From an uncultured Nitrospiraceae bacterium (GTDB lineage: Bacteria > Nitrospirota > Nitrospiria > Nitrospirales > Nitrospiraceae), in assembly GCA_963730935.1 (NCBI GenBank), contig CAVSTP010000003.1:192001-256000 (forward strand): a stretch of 64,000 bases of DNA, read 5' to 3'. Below, one piece after another: positions 17,653-54,965 of the stretch. The notes under the pieces are model-generated. The model made no database searches. It saw only the letters and a list, made by a program, of their open reading frames with translations, and was not told the DNA's origin. How positions within the stretch are numbered: position 1 is the stretch's first letter; each line of letters begins with the position of its first letter. The position numbers and the translations under genes were made by a program.

Positions 17653-17729
17653 GGGCCCATAGCTCAGGTGGTTAGAGCGGCTGACTCATAATCAGCTGGT
17701 CCTAGGTTCGAGTCCTAGTGGGCCCACCA
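17653..17729 (+). tRNA. tRNA with CAT anticodon, most likely tRNA-Ile2 (lysidine-modified)
   Basis: GGGCCCA acceptor stem pairs with TGGGCCC-A-CCA; anticodon arm GCTGA-CTCATAA-TCAGC; T loop GTTCGAG; fully paired G1-C72 (not initiator); ileX-like sequence and position after rpoD; upstream TTGACT-18-TAGAAT promoter. Confidence 0.9.
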
Positions 17730-20330: not shown

Positions 20331-20750
20331 GGAGAGGACCGGGTGATCGCTCGTCATGCGACGAGAGGAAAGTCCGGACTTCAGGGGCAGAGCGCTGGGT
20401 AACACCCAGGCGGAGCGATCCGACACCCGCACCACAGAGAACAGACCGCCGATGGCCAAAGCGACGGGATCCCAATCGAGTCGCAACGGATCAGGCAAGG
20501 GTGAAACGGTGGGGTAAGAGCCCACCGCGGGGATGGCGACATCACCGGCACGGTAAGCGTCGCTCGATGCAAGACCAAATAGGAAGACAACTGCCGCATT
20601 CCCTTCGGAGTGCGGCGACCGGCTGGCCCGGCCGAGGTCTTCGGGTAGGTCGCTTGAGGTTCGAGGCAACTCGGATCCCAGAGAAATGATCACCGCCGTC
20701 AAGGAGCATATCCTTGACGGGACAGAATCCGGCTTATAAGTCCTCTCCAC
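20331..20750 (+). ncRNA. rnpB: RNase P RNA, type A
   Basis: GAGGAAAGTCCGG, AAGGGTGAAACGGTGGGGTAAGAGCCCACCG, CAAGACCAAATAGG, ACAGAATCCGGCTTATA; P1 GGAGAGGAC/GTCCTCTCC. Confidence 0.97.
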
Positions 20751-20823
20751 CGCGCCCTTTCTGCATCGATCGCCTGCTCATGATCCAGAAGGGGATCTCG
20801 CTCAGCAGTGCGGAGATCTCCTA

Positions 20824-47105: not shown

Positions 47106-48827
47106 CTATTGATAGTCCTCGTTCAACGCTCTCAGAAACGCCACCAGTGCCGTGGCGTCTCCTGCCGTCAACGCGATGCCCTGCAGCTCTGGAGCTCCAT
47201 TTCTCAGGGTCCCCGCTCGTGCGAGCGTCGAAGTATCGCGATAGAACGTGATGATGTCGTTCAGCGTGTTGAACTGGCCGTTATGCATATACGGTGCGGA
47301 ATGACTCAAGTCGCGAAGTCCAGGCGTTTTGAAACGAGCGATGGCACGAAGCAAGAGCACATCATCGGCCGGGCAGGGCATTTGGCCATCGCACAGTATC
47401 GCCCGAATCTTCGTCTGAGGGGCCGGCATGTCATCGTTGCGAAAGACATTCCACACTCCCAAATCCGTCAGCGTGGTACTGGCCGATGGAATCGATCGGA
47501 AGCGTTCGCTCGCCGTGGGATGCTGTTCGGTGGCCGGAAGGTCGTTGGCTGTTCTGGCGGCAAGGATAGGAATCGGTAGAGTGAAAAAATCGCCTGTAGC
47601 ATGCAAGCTGTCGTATTCTCTCTGGGTCGTGCCGGTATTGTGCAGCTTGAAATCGGTAAAGTTGGGCGCCATATGGCAGGCAATGCAATTCCCGACCTTC
47701 CCCGCCGTCAGTTCTGCCGGTGAAGCGACCGGGGCCGCCGGTTCCGCAAGGAACATCTTCAAGCCCTCCAGTTCAGTCGCACCGAATTCGAATGGTTGAG
47801 AATGAAATTGGAATTGGCCATCGGGTCTGTTGGGGTTGGACGTCACGAATTGAGGAGCGAAACCAGGTGCATTCACGAGCGTTCGTAGGCGTCGGCTGTA
47901 GTCGATCGGAGACTCGTTGGGATCCGGTTGTTGAGGAAGCCCGTTTATTTCGAGGAACACGTCGAACGGCGAGCGAATCGGAGCGCCGCTGTCCTCGGTC
48001 TGCGAAAACAGCAGGCCATTCACGTATGCGGCCACGACTTTCACCACGGCATCGAAGATTTCTTGATCCGTGGCCGATGCGATGAACGCGCGGAATTCGG
48101 GTGATAGACGAGACTCATCTGGGATCGCCGGATTGCTACCGGTAAACAGGATACGGTAGGAGAGCCCGCCGAACTGATCGGACGGGTCGAACGATCCGTC
48201 ATCGCCTCGAACCACACTCGCGATGTGCGCAATGGCCTGTGCTCGCTCGCCCGGCAGCCAGCCGAAGTTTCGGCCGGTGAAGGTTCCGGCGACCAGATCT
48301 TCCATGGAGTTGAATTCTGCGTCGAAATGGAAAAGGACACCGCCCGGCCGATCGAGCGCCGAATTGACCAGCGGAGGCGAATTACGGGGCGTATGGGTCT
48401 TGCCGTCGGCGCGAGCGGGGATCGGACTCCGTGATGCAAAATCAGTATAGGTACGCATGCTGCCTCCGGGAGCCGTCAGGAGGTCGTCGACAAAGTGACA
48501 GGACCGGCAGTTCATCGACATCCCTTTGAAGGGCGCTTCGGCGGTAATTGGGGCTCCCAAGGTTTCCACTGAATCCACGACAGGGTCACCTGCATTCGGA
48601 TCGTTGACGTCTCCTCCGCTGTCCAAAAACGCCTTGAACGCCTGGGCAAATCGGGTTTCCATGAACAAGCGCTCGCCGACGGCCTGTTCCGCTCCAGGGG
48701 TCCCTGTGGTCCTGGCGGTGGCAGGAGCACCAGAATTTCCGCTGCCTGAACAGCCTGTCGCGACCATGGTGGTAATAAGTAGGAGTCTTAAAGTAGACAG
48801 AAAAAATCCGCAAGGCGTTGGGAACAT
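47106..48827 (-). CDS. Di-heme cytochrome c peroxidase/MauG-superfamily lipoprotein
   Basis: Lipobox ATGC, GERLF.E.R, CRSCH and CIACH heme motifs, PRNSPPLVN, FKTPGLRDL..SAPYMHNG; AGGAGGAG SD before ATG 48827. Confidence 0.85.
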   Translation of the reverse strand: MFPTPCGFFLSTLRLLLITTMVATGCSGSGNSGAPATARTTGTPGAEQAVGERLFMETRFAQAFKAFLDSGGDVNDPNAGDPVVDSVETLGAPITAEAPFKGMSMNCRSCHFVDDLLTAPGGSMRTYTDFASRSPIPARADGKTHTPRNSPPLVNSALDRPGGVLFHFDAEFNSMEDLVAGTFTGRNFGWLPGERAQAIAHIASVVRGDDGSFDPSDQFGGLSYRILFTGSNPAIPDESRLSPEFRAFIASATDQEIFDAVVKVVAAYVNGLLFSQTEDSGAPIRSPFDVFLEINGLPQQPDPNESPIDYSRRLRTLVNAPGFAPQFVTSNPNRPDGQFQFHSQPFEFGATELEGLKMFLAEPAAPVASPAELTAGKVGNCIACHMAPNFTDFKLHNTGTTQREYDSLHATGDFFTLPIPILAARTANDLPATEQHPTASERFRSIPSASTTLTDLGVWNVFRNDDMPAPQTKIRAILCDGQMPCPADDVLLLRAIARFKTPGLRDLSHSAPYMHNGQFNTLNDIITFYRDTSTLARAGTLRNGAPELQGIALTAGDATALVAFLRALNEDYQ

Positions 48828-48842
48828 GATCACTCCTCCTGA

Positions 48843-49517
48843 TCAGTTTAAAATAAGGTTCGGTCGTTGCAGGCAGTGCCCACACATCTCGACAAGCTGA
48901 GGATCGAATTGTGTACCCGATGCGACGGTGAGAATACGGTAGGCCGCTATGTTACGTGCGTCCTGATCGATCGCTCCGGGGATCTGGATGGCGTCGAAGG
49001 CGTCCGCAATTGCGAGGACACGAGCCTCGATTGGAATGAAGGTTCCTCGTATCCCATAGGGATATCCTGATCCATCCCATCGTTCGTGGTGGTGTGCGAT
49101 GATCACCGACGCATTTCCGAGAAACCGGTATGGTTCAAGCCATTGAGCACCGGTTCGTGGATGGCATTGGACGGCAGTATACGATTCACCATCGAGATAG
49201 CCGGCATGCGCATGCAGCCTGCTGGGCAATGCTAACAGACCAATGTCGTGGAGCAGTGCCGCGAGCGTCAAATGGTGCCATGCATCTCGACAGAGACCTG
49301 CGGCTGATCCGATGGCCTGTGCCAGGGCGGCGGTTCTCCGCGCATGTCCTTGCTGCCATGGCAGGGCCTGATCCATTATCTTCGCCACTTGCCGGACGAG
49401 AACGGCTTCGATATGGGGCCGGGCTGAACTGGGTAGCCGAAGGACATCAATCGTTCGAAGTGCCAATCGGATGCGTTCCAGTGCTGAATCAGTGCTGATC
49501 ATTGGAATCGACTGCAT
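48843..49517 (-). CDS. Stand-alone HD-GYP domain protein
   Basis: ALLHDIG, HP..GA, HHHERWDGSGYP, IP..ARVLAIADAFDA, GTQFDP; start uncertain (49517 or 49532). Confidence 0.85.
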   Translation of the reverse strand: MQSIPMISTDSALERIRLALRTIDVLRLPSSARPHIEAVLVRQVAKIMDQALPWQQGHARRTAALAQAIGSAAGLCRDAWHHLTLAALLHDIGLLALPSRLHAHAGYLDGESYTAVQCHPRTGAQWLEPYRFLGNASVIIAHHHERWDGSGYPYGIRGTFIPIEARVLAIADAFDAIQIPGAIDQDARNIAAYRILTVASGTQFDPQLVEMCGHCLQRPNLILN

Positions 49518-49530
49518 GACGTGCGCTCGC

Positions 49531-49567
49531 AAACAAAAAGCCCAAGATCCTGTCTCGATCTTGGGCT
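49531..49567 (-). terminator. Intrinsic terminator immediately upstream of the HD-GYP gene
   Basis: Minus strand AGCCCAAGATC-gagacag-GATCTTGGGCT followed by TTTTGTTT. Confidence 0.8.
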
Positions 49568-49604
49568 CTGGGTGAACAACCGCTGGCCTCTACAGATATT
49601 TACG
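49563..49604 (-). repeat. Shared cis-element, copy B
   Basis: CGTAAATATCTGTAGAGGCCAGCGGT-tgttcac-CCAGAGCCC; similar to 52914-52964. Confidence 0.6.
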
Positions 49605-49620
49605 GACTGAAGTTCGAATG

Positions 49621-50139
49621 CTAGCTCTCTTCTCCTCGCTTCCCTGCCATCAACGGTTGCCCCAAGATCCACATCTCATACAATGGCACAGCCATCATGA
49701 CGAAGAAGCTGAGCATCATGAGGGTGTCTCCCGTGAGCATGGTCAACACAAAGACGGGGGAGACATAGCTGATCAGCCACGGCGAGATGAGATCGAGAAT
49801 AACGCCGCCGAATCCTGACCAGGTCAGGGCAGCCTTCAAGGCATGGCTGGCATTGGTGAGGAACATGACGTGCACCAAAATTATAAACACGACCGGCATC
49901 GTGAAAAGGTGAAAGTGCGTGACCTCGGCCAATTCGCGGAACGACATCGGTTCGCCGAACGTCGCGTCTGACCCTCGATAGTGATCGGCAATGCCTGATG
50001 GCGATAATCCGGTCATACTGTGGGCCCAAAAAAAGGAAAACAAGAAGCCGGCCAACATCAACAGTAAGAACAACGTGTACAACAGCCGAATATGACGATC
50101 GGAGTCACGGAGCCTGAATCGCTGATTGAAGTTGCGCAT
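49621..50139 (-). CDS. Four-TM membrane protein with several His residues (possible cytochrome b-like partner)
   Basis: Hydrophobic segments; IADHYRG, EVTHFHLFTM, ILVHV; directly downstream of the FMN-binding protein. Confidence 0.8.
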   Translation of the reverse strand: MRNFNQRFRLRDSDRHIRLLYTLFLLLMLAGFLFSFFWAHSMTGLSPSGIADHYRGSDATFGEPMSFRELAEVTHFHLFTMPVVFIILVHVMFLTNASHALKAALTWSGFGGVILDLISPWLISYVSPVFVLTMLTGDTLMMLSFFVMMAVPLYEMWILGQPLMAGKRGEES

Positions 50140-50161
50140 GCGGGACGCGTGGTCCGCTTTC

Positions 50162-50839
50162 TCAATTACCGAACACCGAGCCCCAAAAACCCTTTTCGGC
50201 TTTTCGCGCGGCGATGGTGTCGCTGCCTAATCCGACAGGTTTTAAATAAAATTCATCAACAAGGACCAGGACGCGCTTAACTCCAGCGCTGAAAGAGCGC
50301 ACAGACATGGTGGCTCCGCTGATGTTGATGATGTCTTTATTGATGCGGATCGGATCGTGAACTGTCTTGCCTTCGTACTGGACATTGAATCGTTTGGTGC
50401 GTACCTCGCTGCCTTTGGCCTCTCGGAAGACGAGCAGTTCGACATCGGTGCAAGCGCCCGTTGGGTCGACTCCGACCATATAGGTCATGGGCTTATGCTT
50501 GCCGATCGTGTTCTGAATTAACGCATATCCGTCAACTCTGGTGCCGGTTTCGCCAACGAAGACTTCAAAAGATTCCTCAGGAAATTTCCACCCGATTCGC
50601 TCTTCGATCTGAGCTTTCTTTTCCGGTGTAAGCCGGATGACATCCTGCCGAATGCGTTCGGAATTCGGCAACATGATTTTGAGTGCCTCCTCCTCCGTCA
50701 GAAAAACCTCCGCATGAGTCATTTCTTGTTCGGTCAGGAAGCGTTTGAGTTCGGCATCCCAAATGCGCTCGCTCCAGGCCGGCGTTGCAAATGCGATAAA
50801 CAGGCATAGGCTGCTAAGAAATGAGGCCAGAGGTTTCAT
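50162..50839 (-). CDS. Exported FMN-binding (flavinylation substrate) protein
   Basis: Signal peptide (PAWS), GKHKPMTYMVGVD, FRE..GSEV, DIINISGATMS with the [S/T]GA[S/T] flavinylation motif; ATGA overlap with the upstream gene. Confidence 0.88.
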   Translation of the reverse strand: MKPLASFLSSLCLFIAFATPAWSERIWDAELKRFLTEQEMTHAEVFLTEEEALKIMLPNSERIRQDVIRLTPEKKAQIEERIGWKFPEESFEVFVGETGTRVDGYALIQNTIGKHKPMTYMVGVDPTGACTDVELLVFREAKGSEVRTKRFNVQYEGKTVHDPIRINKDIINISGATMSVRSFSAGVKRVLVLVDEFYLKPVGLGSDTIAARKAEKGFWGSVFGN

Positions 50840-51297
50840 GATGTTGCACATCCTTTTTCGTGTAACTTAGAGTTCAATTGGTTGGAAACATCGTTCAGCA
50901 CCTCTTCCGAGGGGTCGATTGGCCACCACCGGGTAGCTGCCTGCGTAACCCCGCCCTTTGCATGCCACCGCTGGCGGGTTTCCAAAATGCTGACCGCTGC
51001 TACGTCATCCATGCGTTTGACCGCCGCGCTGAGCCGGGCGCGTTCGCGGTTGCCGAATCCTTCCCTTCCGAAGGCCCCGTAGGTTCGTTCCTTACCTTCC
51101 ATTTCAATCCAGGCGGTTTCTATGACGCCCTTTTCTTTGTTTTGGCTTGTGATGGAATGGCCTTTGAGCGTATCGATGGCCGCATCCCATACGGTGTCGT
51201 ATGCGCAGGTGTAATAATGATCATGACTGCCGCTTACCGCGGCGCATCCAGCGGCGAGCACCAGGAAGGAAAGACAAACGATGTTGTTCACGCTCAT
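50836..51297 (-). CDS. Lipoprotein (possibly BamC/NlpB-like fold)
   Basis: Lipobox LAAGC; YDTVWDAAIDTL...KEKGVIETAW pattern. Confidence 0.75.
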   Translation of the reverse strand: MSVNNIVCLSFLVLAAGCAAVSGSHDHYYTCAYDTVWDAAIDTLKGHSITSQNKEKGVIETAWIEMEGKERTYGAFGREGFGNRERARLSAAVKRMDDVAAVSILETRQRWHAKGGVTQAATRWWPIDPSEEVLNDVSNQLNSKLHEKGCATS

Positions 51298-51318
51298 GTT
51301 GTACCTGAATGTGGATCA

Positions 51319-51354
51319 TGTGGGGCTCTTTCATTCGCACGAAAAAGCCCCACG
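51319..51354. other. Intergenic hairpin between the porin and lipoprotein genes
   Basis: GTGGGGCT...AGCCCCAC inverted repeat; no clear downstream U tract on the minus strand. Confidence 0.55.
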
Positions 51355-51362
51355 ATAACGAC

Positions 51363-52865
51363 CTAGAAATACGTCGCTGCTGAAATGACAAATGCGTTGT
51401 CGTGAATACGCTGACCGGAGTTTGGATTAAAAGACATCGGCAGATATTGGTAACTCATCTTGAATACGCAATCTTCGATGGGCCGGTAGTTCAAGCCGAA
51501 CGAGATTTGCTCCAGGTTGCCCTCGTTTTCCCCTTTGTTATCCATGTTGAGGTTAACTCGGTCGTACCGAATGACGGCCGTGAAGGTTGACCCCTCGCCG
51601 AATCGTTTCGGTGACCAGTTGGCCAGGAACGCAGGCATGAAATGATAGTTTGCTTGGATGTAGTACCCTTGCATTCGCTGTGGTGGAGCGGCAAACGAGT
51701 TCAGCGTGTTGACCCCCGTGAGTAAGGAACCAGGACTGAAACCGAAGGTACTCCCAGGGATCGCCCGGGAGTTACCGCGAGCATAGGACCAGGCTGCTTC
51801 ACCGATGAGTTCAAACGGACCTTTTTGAAGTGTCCAGTCGATTGCTGTGATACTTAAGGGGTTATAGCTGGATGGAGAGGCATTGCCAAAATATCCCGAT
51901 CCGGCAACCTCCACGCCAAGCATCGGGCTGAAGGCCAGACGACCTGAGACAGCCTTTCCGTTATTAATGTCAAGCCCGTCAGCGGTCTGTTCACATTTCC
52001 GTTGGCGAGTATTCTTTGTCCCGTTTTCCTCGTTAGCACGTGGGGACCCGTCACTGTTATACCCACAAGGGCCTGTTGTGAAGTACAACTCATAGTCCAG
52101 CTTACTGGTCCTTCCCGGGTAGAATGTCCCGTAAAAGCCTGCGCCGGTTTCTGACATGGTTGATGGGACGACGAACTGGGCGACAAGTGGCCGATCGGTT
52201 AAGTCGTTCAAGGGCGAGTCGTGCAGCAGGTTGAACTTGCCGATTGGAATGAGCAAAATTCCTGCCCGAATATTGAAGGGTTCATTCACCAGGTAGTCGA
52301 TATGAGCGAACTCCAGACTAATTTCGATTTCACCGGCCCCTCTAATCCCATGTTCGATCTCAAGTTCTGATGCGAACTTCACATGCTCGGTGATGTCGGC
52401 GTAAATGAATGGCACGAAACGCTGCTGGTCGAATCCGTTGGTCGTACCCTGGTCACCCCGTATAGCGTTATAGTCTCCCGTTTCGAGGACACCCTTTTGG
52501 TGACTCCGATATTGAATGTCCATGTAACCGCCGACAATGGCTTTGGGCGCAGCCACGAACGGTTTGGCGTAGACCAAGCGGCCTGATCCGGTCGATCCAA
52601 AGCCTAATGGAACTTTTTCCTCCCCCTTCCGCTCGACTCTGACCTCGCTCATCGGACCTGTGGGTACCGGGTACTGAGGAGCAGCTTCCTTCTGTTCCAT
52701 ACTTCGCTCGGCTGCGCCTTCGCGTCGTTCGTGCTCCTGCATCTTCCTGTTGACTGCCTCATCAACCATCTTTTGAATTTCCTCGGGGGTCATGTCGGCG
52801 GCCAGGGCCGGCATCACCGGCAAGCTTGCGATCACGAGAGTCCCGAGGATTGACCTGATCCTCAT
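51363..52865 (-). CDS. Outer-membrane beta-barrel (porin-like, not TonB-dependent)
   Basis: Signal peptide (ALA), N-terminal coiled coil, amphipathic strands, FASELEIEH...LEFAHIDY...RAGILLIPIG...DRP, C-terminal ATYF; GGAGG SD. Confidence 0.8.
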   Translation of the reverse strand: MRIRSILGTLVIASLPVMPALAADMTPEEIQKMVDEAVNRKMQEHERREGAAERSMEQKEAAPQYPVPTGPMSEVRVERKGEEKVPLGFGSTGSGRLVYAKPFVAAPKAIVGGYMDIQYRSHQKGVLETGDYNAIRGDQGTTNGFDQQRFVPFIYADITEHVKFASELEIEHGIRGAGEIEISLEFAHIDYLVNEPFNIRAGILLIPIGKFNLLHDSPLNDLTDRPLVAQFVVPSTMSETGAGFYGTFYPGRTSKLDYELYFTTGPCGYNSDGSPRANEENGTKNTRQRKCEQTADGLDINNGKAVSGRLAFSPMLGVEVAGSGYFGNASPSSYNPLSITAIDWTLQKGPFELIGEAAWSYARGNSRAIPGSTFGFSPGSLLTGVNTLNSFAAPPQRMQGYYIQANYHFMPAFLANWSPKRFGEGSTFTAVIRYDRVNLNMDNKGENEGNLEQISFGLNYRPIEDCVFKMSYQYLPMSFNPNSGQRIHDNAFVISAATYF

Positions 52866-52913
52866 TCCAAACCTCCATAAGGTAAGTGGTAGTGGTCAGA
52901 CTCGGGACTCGAC

Positions 52914-52964
52914 GGTCTCTGGTCATCTTGATTTCAATACGGCTGTGCCTCGACGATATTTCCG
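52914..52964 (-). repeat. Shared cis-element, copy A
   Basis: CGGAAATATCGTCGAGGCACAGCCGT-attgaaatcaagatga-CCAGAGACC in the porin leader; similar to 49563-49604. Confidence 0.6.
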
Positions 52965-52977
52965 AAAGCCTCCTTTC

Positions 52978-53163
52978 TCATAGCCGACTTGATGATGGGG
53001 CGTTCCTCCATCCCTGGATCGAGGAGAAGGGAATGACCACGATGCGTTTACATCGTTTGCATTTCAGCTCCAAGCTTTGGCCTCTGACTTTTGCGATTAA
53101 TTGGCCGCATTCGCAGCGGGTTTCAGATGTTTCGGCGATCGCGTGTGAAGGACCAGTGATCAT
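52978..53163 (-). CDS. Small Com-family-like Cys4 zinc-finger protein (61 aa)
   Basis: ETRCECGQLIAK...LELKCKRCKRIVVIP resembles the Mu Com pattern RCxxCxKLL...IEIxCPRCKR; AGGAAG before ATG 53163. Confidence 0.75.
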   Translation of the reverse strand: MITGPSHAIAETSETRCECGQLIAKVRGQSLELKCKRCKRIVVIPFSSIQGWRNAPSSSRL

Positions 53164-53176
53164 AAGGCGACTTCCT

Positions 53177-53195
53177 GATATTGAGAACAATTATT
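53177..53195. promoter_or_regulatory. Fur box
   Basis: GATATTGAGAACAATTATT, 14/19 match to GATAATGATAATCATTATC; AT-rich island just downstream of a promoter. Confidence 0.8.
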
Positions 53196-53208
53196 AAAAT
53201 CGCTGGCG

Positions 53209-53237
53209 AGTATAGCGACGTCCTCCTACACTGTCAA
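53209..53237 (-). promoter_or_regulatory. Sigma70 promoter of the Com-like/porin operon
   Basis: Minus strand TTGACA (53237-32), 17 nt spacer, TATACT (53214-09). Confidence 0.8.
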
Positions 53238-53298
53238 GAGGTGTCCCTCGAGGGATCGTGCTCCCCTTGGATCGAGGCGATGCCGTATAATCACGGTA

Positions 53299-53910
53299 AT
53301 GGTGCCTATGTCATCCGTATGGCGGTCCTGTGCGGTAGGACTCATCTTCCTGCAGGGCTGCCTAAGTGAACTCCCTGCCGTGCCTGAGGAGGGGATCGTC
53401 CAGTCGAATGTTGCTGTCGGGCGGGTCGTTGCTGTGCTCACCGGCGAGCGGAGGCGGATCTACGAGCCAGCTGTCAGATCGTTCGAGGTCCAGAATAGGC
53501 AGACCAAGGAACGTTTTACGGTCGAGATAGAGTCGGACGACGAACGATTCATTCTGCCACTTGCCCCAGGTGAGTATGAATTGATCCGCGTTCAAATCAA
53601 TGAAGGCCCTTTCTTGTCGATCGCCCAACTGGCGTCGACGTTTTCGATTGGCCGAGATCCGGTCACCTATCTGGGAACCTGGAGGTTCGGAGTTGATTCT
53701 CCGAAATATGGCCGGATGGTATCTGTGTCCATGGTCAGTGACGAAGCAGACCGCGCTCACGCAATCGAAACACTCACACACGAAGAGCCGTCGTGGGAGG
53801 CTGGCACTGTTCCCACTGTGCTGCCTGATCCGACAGAAGTGCAGGCGCGTCTGTACGAAGTCATGCCTTATCCCCGAGTGCCCCGCTATTTCCGTCGCCA
53901 CTGGTGGTGA
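53299..53910 (+). CDS. Lipoprotein of unknown function
   Basis: Lipobox-like LQGC; FILPLAPGEYEL and VTYLGTW beta-sandwich-like motifs; overlaps the apbE ORF. Confidence 0.75.
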   Translation: MVPMSSVWRSCAVGLIFLQGCLSELPAVPEEGIVQSNVAVGRVVAVLTGERRRIYEPAVRSFEVQNRQTKERFTVEIESDDERFILPLAPGEYELIRVQINEGPFLSIAQLASTFSIGRDPVTYLGTWRFGVDSPKYGRMVSVSMVSDEADRAHAIETLTHEEPSWEAGTVPTVLPDPTEVQARLYEVMPYPRVPRYFRRHWW

Positions 53911-53921
53911 AGCCCTACTAC

Positions 53922-54965
53922 ATGAGCCTCAAGCGCACCATGGCCGTTGTCTGTCTGGGTGTTGCAATTCTGTCTTGTGCTAAAGGCGGGTCTCCTGAAC
54001 TTCTCTTGGTGACGGTGAAACGGACACAGATGCATATGGGCACGCTGGTGTCCATCACCGCGGTTGGACGGACACAAGAGGAGGCCACTGCCGCCATTAC
54101 CGCCGGGTTTCAGGAAGTGAAGCGCCTCGAACAATTGCTGAGTACATGGATTCCCGATAGCGAGCTCTCACAGGTCAATGCTGCTGCAGGGCGAAGCCCC
54201 GTACGGGTCAGCTTGGAAACCATGGTGCTTGTGAGAAAATCGCTCCAGGTTGCCGAAATGACCGAAGGGGCGTTCAACATCGCCATTGGCCCGGCCGTCG
54301 ATGCGTGGAATATCTCGGCCGAACCTCGGCTTCCGACTGCTGAAGAATTGGCCGCTCTCAAGCCGTTGATAGATTTACAGCATGTGCATACGGACGTCTG
54401 GGAGCGGACGATTTACCTGGAAAAGCCCGGTATGCGCGTCGACGTGGGAGGTATCGGTAAAGGCTATGCTGCCGATCAGGCCGTTCTGGTGATGAAAAAG
54501 GCAGGAGCGGTCGCCGGCGTCGTGGCATTGTCTGGCGATATCAAGGGCTTCGGACGTTTGCCGGATGGTGGAGCTTTTCGGGTCGGAATCCAGCACCCTA
54601 GGAAGGAGGGCGAAATCATAGCGGAGATCAATCTGCAAGACGAGGCCATTTCAACTGCCGGCGATTACGAGCGGTTCTTCGAAAAGGATGGTATCCGATA
54701 TCATCACATCCTGGATCCCAACACGCTGCAACCGGCTAGGGGCTGTCAAAGTGTGAGCGTGATTGCCAAGGAAGGAATTTGGGCCGACGGCCTTGATACC
54801 GGCATTTTCGTGCTGGGCGCTGAGCGAGGCATGGAACTGGTCGAGCAGTTGGAAGACGTCGAAGCGATCATCGTCGACCGAGATGGCCACGTGCTGATCT
54901 CATCCGGACTGCGAAACCGAGTGCGATTATCGCTCCGACTCGACGAGTTGAAACTCAATCACTAA
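53922..54965 (+). CDS. apbE: FAD:protein FMN transferase ApbE (lipoprotein)
   Basis: MGTLV, SELSQVN, GAFNIAIGP, DVGGIGKGYAAD, STAGDYERFF, YHHILDP, ADGLDT; start 53904-53940 uncertain. Confidence 0.93.
   Translation: MSLKRTMAVVCLGVAILSCAKGGSPELLLVTVKRTQMHMGTLVSITAVGRTQEEATAAITAGFQEVKRLEQLLSTWIPDSELSQVNAAAGRSPVRVSLETMVLVRKSLQVAEMTEGAFNIAIGPAVDAWNISAEPRLPTAEELAALKPLIDLQHVHTDVWERTIYLEKPGMRVDVGGIGKGYAADQAVLVMKKAGAVAGVVALSGDIKGFGRLPDGGAFRVGIQHPRKEGEIIAEINLQDEAISTAGDYERFFEKDGIRYHHILDPNTLQPARGCQSVSVIAKEGIWADGLDTGIFVLGAERGMELVEQLEDVEAIIVDRDGHVLISSGLRNRVRLSLRLDELKLNH

Follow-up and report, generated by a model that had tools for sequence, protein, structure and literature searches.

What is a relative of the phage Mu regulator Com doing at the head of a chromosomal operon, and on which RNA would it act? 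The question is raised by a minus-strand operon in a 64,000-nucleotide stretch of DNA from an uncultured Nitrospiraceae bacterium (the window; contig CAVSTP010000003.1, positions 192,001 to 256,000, with coordinates below counted from its first letter), for which an earlier note, made from the letters alone, had proposed a cascade from Fur through a small zinc-finger protein to a duplicated leader motif overlapping a terminator. The operon and its relatives hold a real, conserved protein-RNA module, a Com-like protein with a hairpin of 25-26 nucleotides (nt), evident in its parts, their conservation, covariation and overlaps, their loss together and their spread. It is likely that release of Fur is followed by production of the Com-like protein, and this in turn by antitermination at one hairpin and translational activation at another.

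The Com-like protein and its RNA site

The gene at 52978..53163 (minus strand, as are all operon features below) encodes a 61-amino-acid (aa) Cys4 zinc-ribbon protein of the CxC...CxxC form pointed out by the note, and its four cysteines and two flanking arginines are invariant in an alignment of 49 homologues. Against PHROGs it matches a 'translational regulator' (E 7e-5) and 'gpCom' (E 2e-3), and alignment of the family profile with Mu Com by hhalign gives a probability of 95% and E 2.8e-8; judged by this homology it is a divergent chromosomal relative of Com. The predicted structure is a beta-ribbon (pLDDT 72), with which Foldseek returned no match at E <= 0.001, and the HemP Pfam domain matched neither the window protein nor the 49 family members. 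By analogy with Com, the protein would be expected to bind zinc and, sequence-specifically, RNA, while metal sensing by it, put forward earlier as a possibility, is so far unsupported. A Com-like protein in a non-phage setting, as the note proposed, is supported by the Com homology together with the surroundings: none of ten neighbour genes (0/10) matches PHROGs, comparison with 50,697 phage records gave no match to the protein itself, and genome comparison finds the com locus at the same place across the order. Homologues are present in 130 of the 151 genomes of the order and 66 of the 201 of the phylum, with several relatives named 'phage FluMu protein Com' in JGI. The close homologues are labelled Nitrospira, and the host probably belongs there too.

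Site A (52899..52924; GAC-CAGA-GAC-CGTCGA-GTC-CCGA-GTC) lies directly 3′ of com and before a porin-like gene, and site B (49564..49588; GGC-CAGC-GGT-TGTTC-ACC-CAGA-GCC) follows a gene for a 172-aa hydrophobic protein further along the operon. Each is a hairpin with a 3-bp outer stem, a 4x4 internal loop in which CAGA or CAGC stands opposite CAGA or CCGA, a 3-bp inner stem and a short loop, which in site A takes the form C-N3-GA. With leaders parsed on loop sequences alone, not on stems, the site A fold fits 59 of 62 porin leaders of family f1 (the three without a parse were left out of the alignment, and a rule served to reassign the porin start in five), and the 27 distinct variants show none but standard pairs at the six positions (342 of 342 cells). 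For site B, where a decayed sequence (L112) and a spurious one (L120) were removed from 33 parsed sites before alignment, the inner stem is 100% paired over 32 sites with 23 double changes, a score that none of 500 shuffles matched. The hairpin stems contain G-U pairs as well as compensatory changes, and the fold of the isolated hairpin is marginal, at -2.5 to -4.3 kcal/mol.

According to the available text of PMC6483171, selection by Com yields GAG-NN-CC repeats, and the sequence that it binds is 5′-CC(N)2-3GAG-3′, placed in a hairpin loop. The core of the present hairpin is this published determinant, CC-N-GAG, and the CC(N)2-3GAG form is present directly 3′ of com in the apical loop of site A (59/62 f1 leaders). 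As we read the sequence, the internal loop of both sites would offer a C-G pair, an unpaired C and GA twice over, in opposite directions. In the other families a bipartite Com-type repeat with 2-5 nt spacers precedes the porin in 18/18 f2 leaders and in 4/4 com-bearing f3 leaders, the f2 and f3 hairpins having been picked for pairing and their stem types being descriptive. Tandem proteins with two Com domains also exist (P0121, P0122, P0123, P0125, P0127, P0136, P0137 and P0143), and such a form would fit a two-fold RNA site.

Both strings quoted in the note for its duplicated motif are present where it placed them, and patterns derived from them match only two places in the 4.05-Mb genome; the register that it gave to copy A was nevertheless rejected because the 22/27 prefix, with <=3 substitutions, is absent from most orthologous com-porin leaders. 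It occurs in 3 of 52, those of this genome and of the two most closely related to it. Over these 52 leaders the per-position identity is mostly 10-40% along the prefix, and from 52924 on it is mostly at least 90% except at three apical-loop positions. The 5′ part of copy A (52925..52964) is lineage-restricted and lies outside the conserved element, which overlaps copy A as first drawn by the first 11 nt of site A (52924-52899) only. An AAATATC-like prefix precedes none of the 32 orthologous B sites (0/32), and recurs at the B site only in the closest relative, G010; this genome and G010 are the only ones in which the prefix shared by 52925-52964 and 49589-49604 stands in both intergenic regions, possibly through recent duplication or as a decayed extra site.

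A cmscan search of Rfam, as had been proposed, found at gathering score nothing but a tRNA across the region and 13 related loci, and by E-value chance matches only. The description of the motif as unnamed needs qualifying: it has no Rfam match, while its core was already published as the Com determinant (available text of PMC6483171). Nor is it a generic genome-wide repeat, with two significant covariance-model matches in the genome, namely site B and one further site on contig C5. A structural descriptor gives 12 matches in the genome, A, B and C5:1587 being the only convincing ones, and the bare published consensus, with 31 scattered matches, is not specific alone. Loose pattern matches elsewhere in the genome (L036-L039) were recovered by neither the covariance model nor the descriptor and were set aside. 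The third copy, with hairpin and terminator, lies in the region L207:1511-1591 (G000:C5:1511-1591), on the minus strand behind promoter-like and Fur-like sequence, and precedes a gene for a 57-aa CxxC..CxxC protein and an AhpC/TSA-like gene, without an adjacent com; the Com-like protein probably acts there in trans.

The RNA element travels with the com-like gene and appears to be lost with it, a conclusion supported by comparison of orthologous loci and in agreement with the co-occurrence that the earlier note had called for. It is present in 59/62 f1 leaders, and site A is absent from 11/11 f3 leaders without com before the porin and from 5/5 f4 leaders. In 15 of the 17 genomes with such com-less f3 or f4 leaders a profile search found no com, and in the other two only a divergent paralogue elsewhere. 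Genome G156 is without com and without site A, and its site B has decayed.

Overlaps with a terminator and with a stem around the porin start

The last 6 nt of site B (49569-49564) are also the first 6 nt of an intrinsic terminator (49530..49569, or 49569-49537 in a narrower delimitation), forming the foot of its 5′ arm, and with this overlap, the covarying inner stem of the hairpin and the conserved terminator, the claim that the two structures are mutually exclusive holds. The 32 B sites in the alignment retain the 6-nt overlap, and over them the terminator stem is 95% paired, with double changes at 9 of its 14 pairs. Behind the terminator are an HD-GYP-type (HD_5) gene (48843..49532; Pfam HD_5 E 1e-33) and a gene for a MauG/MbnH-like di-heme protein (47106..48833; CCP_MauG E 2.5e-4, and TIGR04039 E 2.5e-13, below cut-off). 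Behind the 172-aa gene, site B is present in 22/25 f1, 8/13 f2, 0/12 f3 and 0/4 f4 regions, and a covariance model of site B plus terminator region matches 33/66 chosen genomes (f1 25/28, f2 7/10, f3 0/12, f4 0/3, other families 1/13). Some contigs from RNA libraries bridge the terminator, and one run also spans the promoter region, so that DNA origin is possible. That site B, a candidate antiterminator, would allow read-through on binding of the protein is quite likely. In some relatives (L070, L074, L075, L076, L081) a second porin, with its own site A variant, lies behind site B and terminator.

The position of site A is of a different kind. In the minimum-energy fold its 3′ half (52910-52901) pairs with nt +19..+28 of the porin gene (52847-52838), and the resulting competing long-range stem (52838..52910; 96% of cells paired) encloses the porin Shine-Dalgarno sequence (SD; 52876-52872) and ATG (52865). 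This stem is stronger than in synonymous recodings (p <= 0.05) in 51/53 f1, 10/18 f2, 0/4 f3 and 1/7 second-porin leaders, and with the hairpin formed, opening of -18..+20 around the start is easier in 56/60 f1 leaders. This topology is shared by the Mu sequence, whose loop is shorter. Site A likely acts as a switch. The sign of its effect depends on the model and footprint used; translational activation is fairly likely.

Proposed mechanism and rival explanations

The promoter claimed in the note is present: a sigma70-type TTGACA-17-TATACT sequence at 53209..53237, with 11/12 consensus positions, and TTGACA stands 5′ of com in most orthologous loci compared. So is its Fur box, here a Fur-like operator directly 3′ of the -10 box (53177..53195), with 14/19 matches to a 19-position Fur consensus against which all Fur-like boxes were scored. 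It is the sole site in the window with 14/19 matches, its position relative to the promoter is such that it overlaps the expected transcription start, and boxes with at least 14 matches lie upstream of com-like genes in 51/79 regions against 0/74 control windows. We infer that Fur may control the operon. At low iron Fur would leave the operator and the operon would be transcribed, its first product being the Com-family zinc ribbon, which, going by the Com proteins of Mu and Haemophilus, would bind an RNA unit in which a C-G pair is flanked by an unpaired C and, on its opposite side, by GA. This unit would be presented twice at site B, by the symmetric internal loop, and three times at site A, by internal and apical loops. 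At site B, protein on the nascent hairpin would hold the foot of the terminator's 5′ arm and so give read-through into the HD-GYP and di-heme genes; at site A it would hold a strand otherwise paired with porin codons 7-10 and so free porin translation, as for Mu mom. Expression of the targets would then depend on accumulation of the small protein as well as on release of Fur, making this a feed-forward step.

Several observations weigh against this scheme. Forcing site B against the terminator costs 10.3 kcal/mol (median 11.3 over 30 orthologues, and 19 in a longer window), and with so high an equilibrium cost capture at site B must be co-transcriptional and tight, before the terminator 3′ arm emerges 27 nt later. 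The outer stems of the hairpin are without covariation, the long-range stem at the porin covaries weakly (its score was matched by 19/500 shuffles), and a GGG codon is kept in 11/11 com-less f3 leaders. With site A formed, opening of the SD only is harder in 40/60 f1 leaders, and opening of -15..+15 is easier in 28 and harder in 22 (23/53 in a separate calculation). Site B is kept in G087 and G144 where com was not found, both assemblies breaking where com would lie; G027 has com and no site nearby or at its porin; there is no site at 23/61 distant loci; and the genomes compared are related, so the counts are not independent. On the protein side, the earlier note's appeal to Com-family profiles succeeds with PHROG gpCom and hhalign and fails with Pfam PF10122, which the window protein does not match at E <= 0.1 and 7/49 family members match at E <= 0.01 (best 3.7e-5), and the first knuckle is CxC where Mu Com has CxxC.

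The doubtful sign at site A is the starting point for the reading in which binding there lowers porin translation, with the freed nt +16..+28 pairing with the SD or first codons as negative feedback on the porin while site B still antiterminates. To the SD-only result can be added that -13..+3 is harder to open in 33/60 leaders and that a forced hairpin brings a new stem over the first codons, but wider footprints open more easily in 56/60 and 60/60, Mu Com activates (available text of PMC6483171), and in G179 (L156) and L291/L292 a porin follows a site of the terminator type, so placed that binding should increase its expression; lowering is unlikely. The cost of undoing the terminator, and the existence of some sites without a compact terminator or tested inhibitory stem, would suit a bound hairpin that mainly protects or processes the messenger RNA (mRNA), with a leaky terminator and an incidental overlap. 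Yet the same 6-nt overlap recurs throughout the 32 B sites of the alignment and at 16 loci from distant groups, and with a divergent paralogue (L352, L353) another kind of repeat likewise overlaps a terminator, which leaves this explanation decidedly unlikely.

A riboswitch for a metal or metabolite that works without protein, the small gene being a passenger, could claim the expression-platform-like overlap, the C5 copy with no com beside it, and G087 and G144. It is very unlikely given an element of only 25-26 nt whose marginal fold was noted above, which is built from the published Com determinant, is lost with com in f3 and G156, and has no Rfam match. The database cluster name for relatives, 'Com family DNA-binding transcriptional regulator', and the direct-repeat character of the element would fit a transcription factor with the repeats as its operators, but the element occurs on one strand only (0 antisense), shows G-U pairs and compensatory changes, and is located well downstream of the promoter, in association with terminators and start sites, while Mu Com binds RNA (available text of PMC6483171); DNA binding is hardly to be expected. 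The scheme of Fur, Com-like protein, antitermination and translational activation is the one retained.

A formal parallel for site B is the RAT element of the BglG, LicT and SacY antiterminators, a short internal-loop hairpin that is stabilised by protein and overlaps the 5′ foot of a terminator by about 6 nt. Here too a conserved hairpin is mutually exclusive with an intrinsic terminator; those proteins, however, have CAT and PRD domains and phosphorylation control, whereas the present one is unrelated, with no CAT or PRD, and the hairpin has no Rfam match to any antiterminator family. In Mu, Com binds RNA and activates mom, with a hairpin next to an inhibitory stem (available text of PMC6483171). 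The likeness extends to a small Cys4 protein with a homologous core, a site directly 3′ of its own gene, the CC-N-GAG determinant, and overlap of the site with the 5′ arm of a stem enclosing the SD. The differences are the chromosomal iron operon with no phage, a target other than a DNA-modifying enzyme, a determinant within a symmetric internal loop, a second site on a terminator, and the presence of several sites in one operon and of others in trans. In Pseudomonas, com-like genes that precede genes for bacteriocins, tailocin cargo and levansucrase also have a non-Mu target gene following, and their general role 'remains to be explored', but their contexts are phage-derived or SOS-type, and an RNA site, a terminator or an iron link is not mentioned in the available text of PMC6240691. 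HemP/HmuP/ChuP, with HPRE leader elements and heme binding by ChuP, resembles the present case as a Fur-repressed small protein that heads an iron or heme operon and acts post-transcriptionally through a leader, with trans targets; it belongs to another protein family, and the HPRE sequences quoted in the available text of 10.1101/2022.02.10.479982 differ. A Myxococcus hemin-transport regulon is listed in PMC3986340, the available text of which does not mention such a regulator, and genY/genZ of the delta-proteobacterial Fur regulon, considered as candidates, are unrelated (available text of PMC545781). In the open-access literature no paper on Com-family antitermination or a Com-controlled iron regulon was found, with subscription papers and supplementary motif tables outside the search.

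Occurrence elsewhere and neighbouring genes

A scan of genome contigs gave 396 pattern matches, 381 of them relatives, of which 80 were kept, with labels including Binatia, Myxococcota, Rokubacteria, Thermodesulfovibrionia and Syntrophobacteraceae. With 2/80 loci left out for short flanks, and with a descriptor written after seeing these loci, the hairpin occurs <=250 nt after the com stop in 38/61 loci not labelled Nitrospirota and in 14/17 Nitrospirota loci, against 1/61 upstream, none on the antisense strand and a shuffle expectation of 0.24. A compact terminator overlaps it in 16 of the 38, after 8/24 'terminator' assignments had been dropped as long folds into coding sequence. Paralogues at other loci (L156, L157, L160, L164, L166, L167, L170) are likewise followed by the site and a terminator-like stem. 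Among 75 proteins hand-picked from the listed neighbours of com loci there are 6 TonB receptors, 5 TonB, 5 FTR1, 4 FecR, 4 extracytoplasmic function (ECF) sigma factors, 3 PepSY_TM, 2 HmuY, 2 ExbB and HemS, with 23 without a family. In Myxococcus and Corallococcus loci the site precedes a TonB receptor and HmuY, so that a genetic system exists.

Whether Com zinc ribbons form a general bacterial RNA-switch system, in which a protein of ~60 aa would read a modular C-G/C/GA unit and the position of the hairpin would set antitermination or translational activation, is evenly poised. Beneath Fur, such a system would gate the uptake of iron and heme in Nitrospirota, Myxococcota, Binatia and others, with paralogue-specific sites, tandem forms matching the two-fold site and possibly a metal-load signal through the Cys4 centre. 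If this is so, a family whose mechanism is known from a single phage gene pair gains a role in transcription antitermination and a host regulon, a post-transcriptional layer is added to iron control in nitrifiers and myxobacteria, and a 25-nt switch with a 60-aa effector becomes a compact tool, keeping in mind that com-like genes are short and easily overlooked in annotation.

Variants of the site were also seen directly after com-like stops. Loci L352 and L353 have a divergent paralogue followed by a different tandem repeat that overlaps a terminator, a hint of co-variation between protein and site; in the viral contigs L176/L178 and L186 a bipartite Com-type repeat overlaps a terminator-like stem; L242 and L308, missed by the descriptor, carry a long inserted helix where the short loop would be; and the Mu-type loci L180, L183 and L187 have the classical site.

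Between sites A and B the operon encodes the porin-like outer-membrane protein that is the putative site A target (51363..52865; Pfam Porin_O_P E 5.5e-5), a lipoprotein-like protein (50836..51297; weak Lipoprotein_18 and DUF3576 matches, below cut-off), an FMN-binding (RnfG-like) exported protein (50162..50851; Pfam FMN_bind E 1e-7) and the 172-aa protein (49621..50139; no Pfam or NCBIfam match). In the gap between the porin and lipoprotein genes a strong hairpin at about 51318-51352 on the minus strand (~-29 kcal/mol for the region, without a U tract) is possibly an mRNA stabiliser. A Pfam scan of the window places ApbE divergently upstream of the operon; within 8 kb of it are exbBD-tonB, an Fe-type ABC transporter and fur, with bacterioferritin at the far end. 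An Rfam scan located RNase P class A RNA and a tRNA in the window, at 20331-20752 and 17653-17726. The porin, the FMN-binding protein, the 172-aa membrane protein and ApbE (49621-54965) recur together in Binatia, Myxococcota and others.

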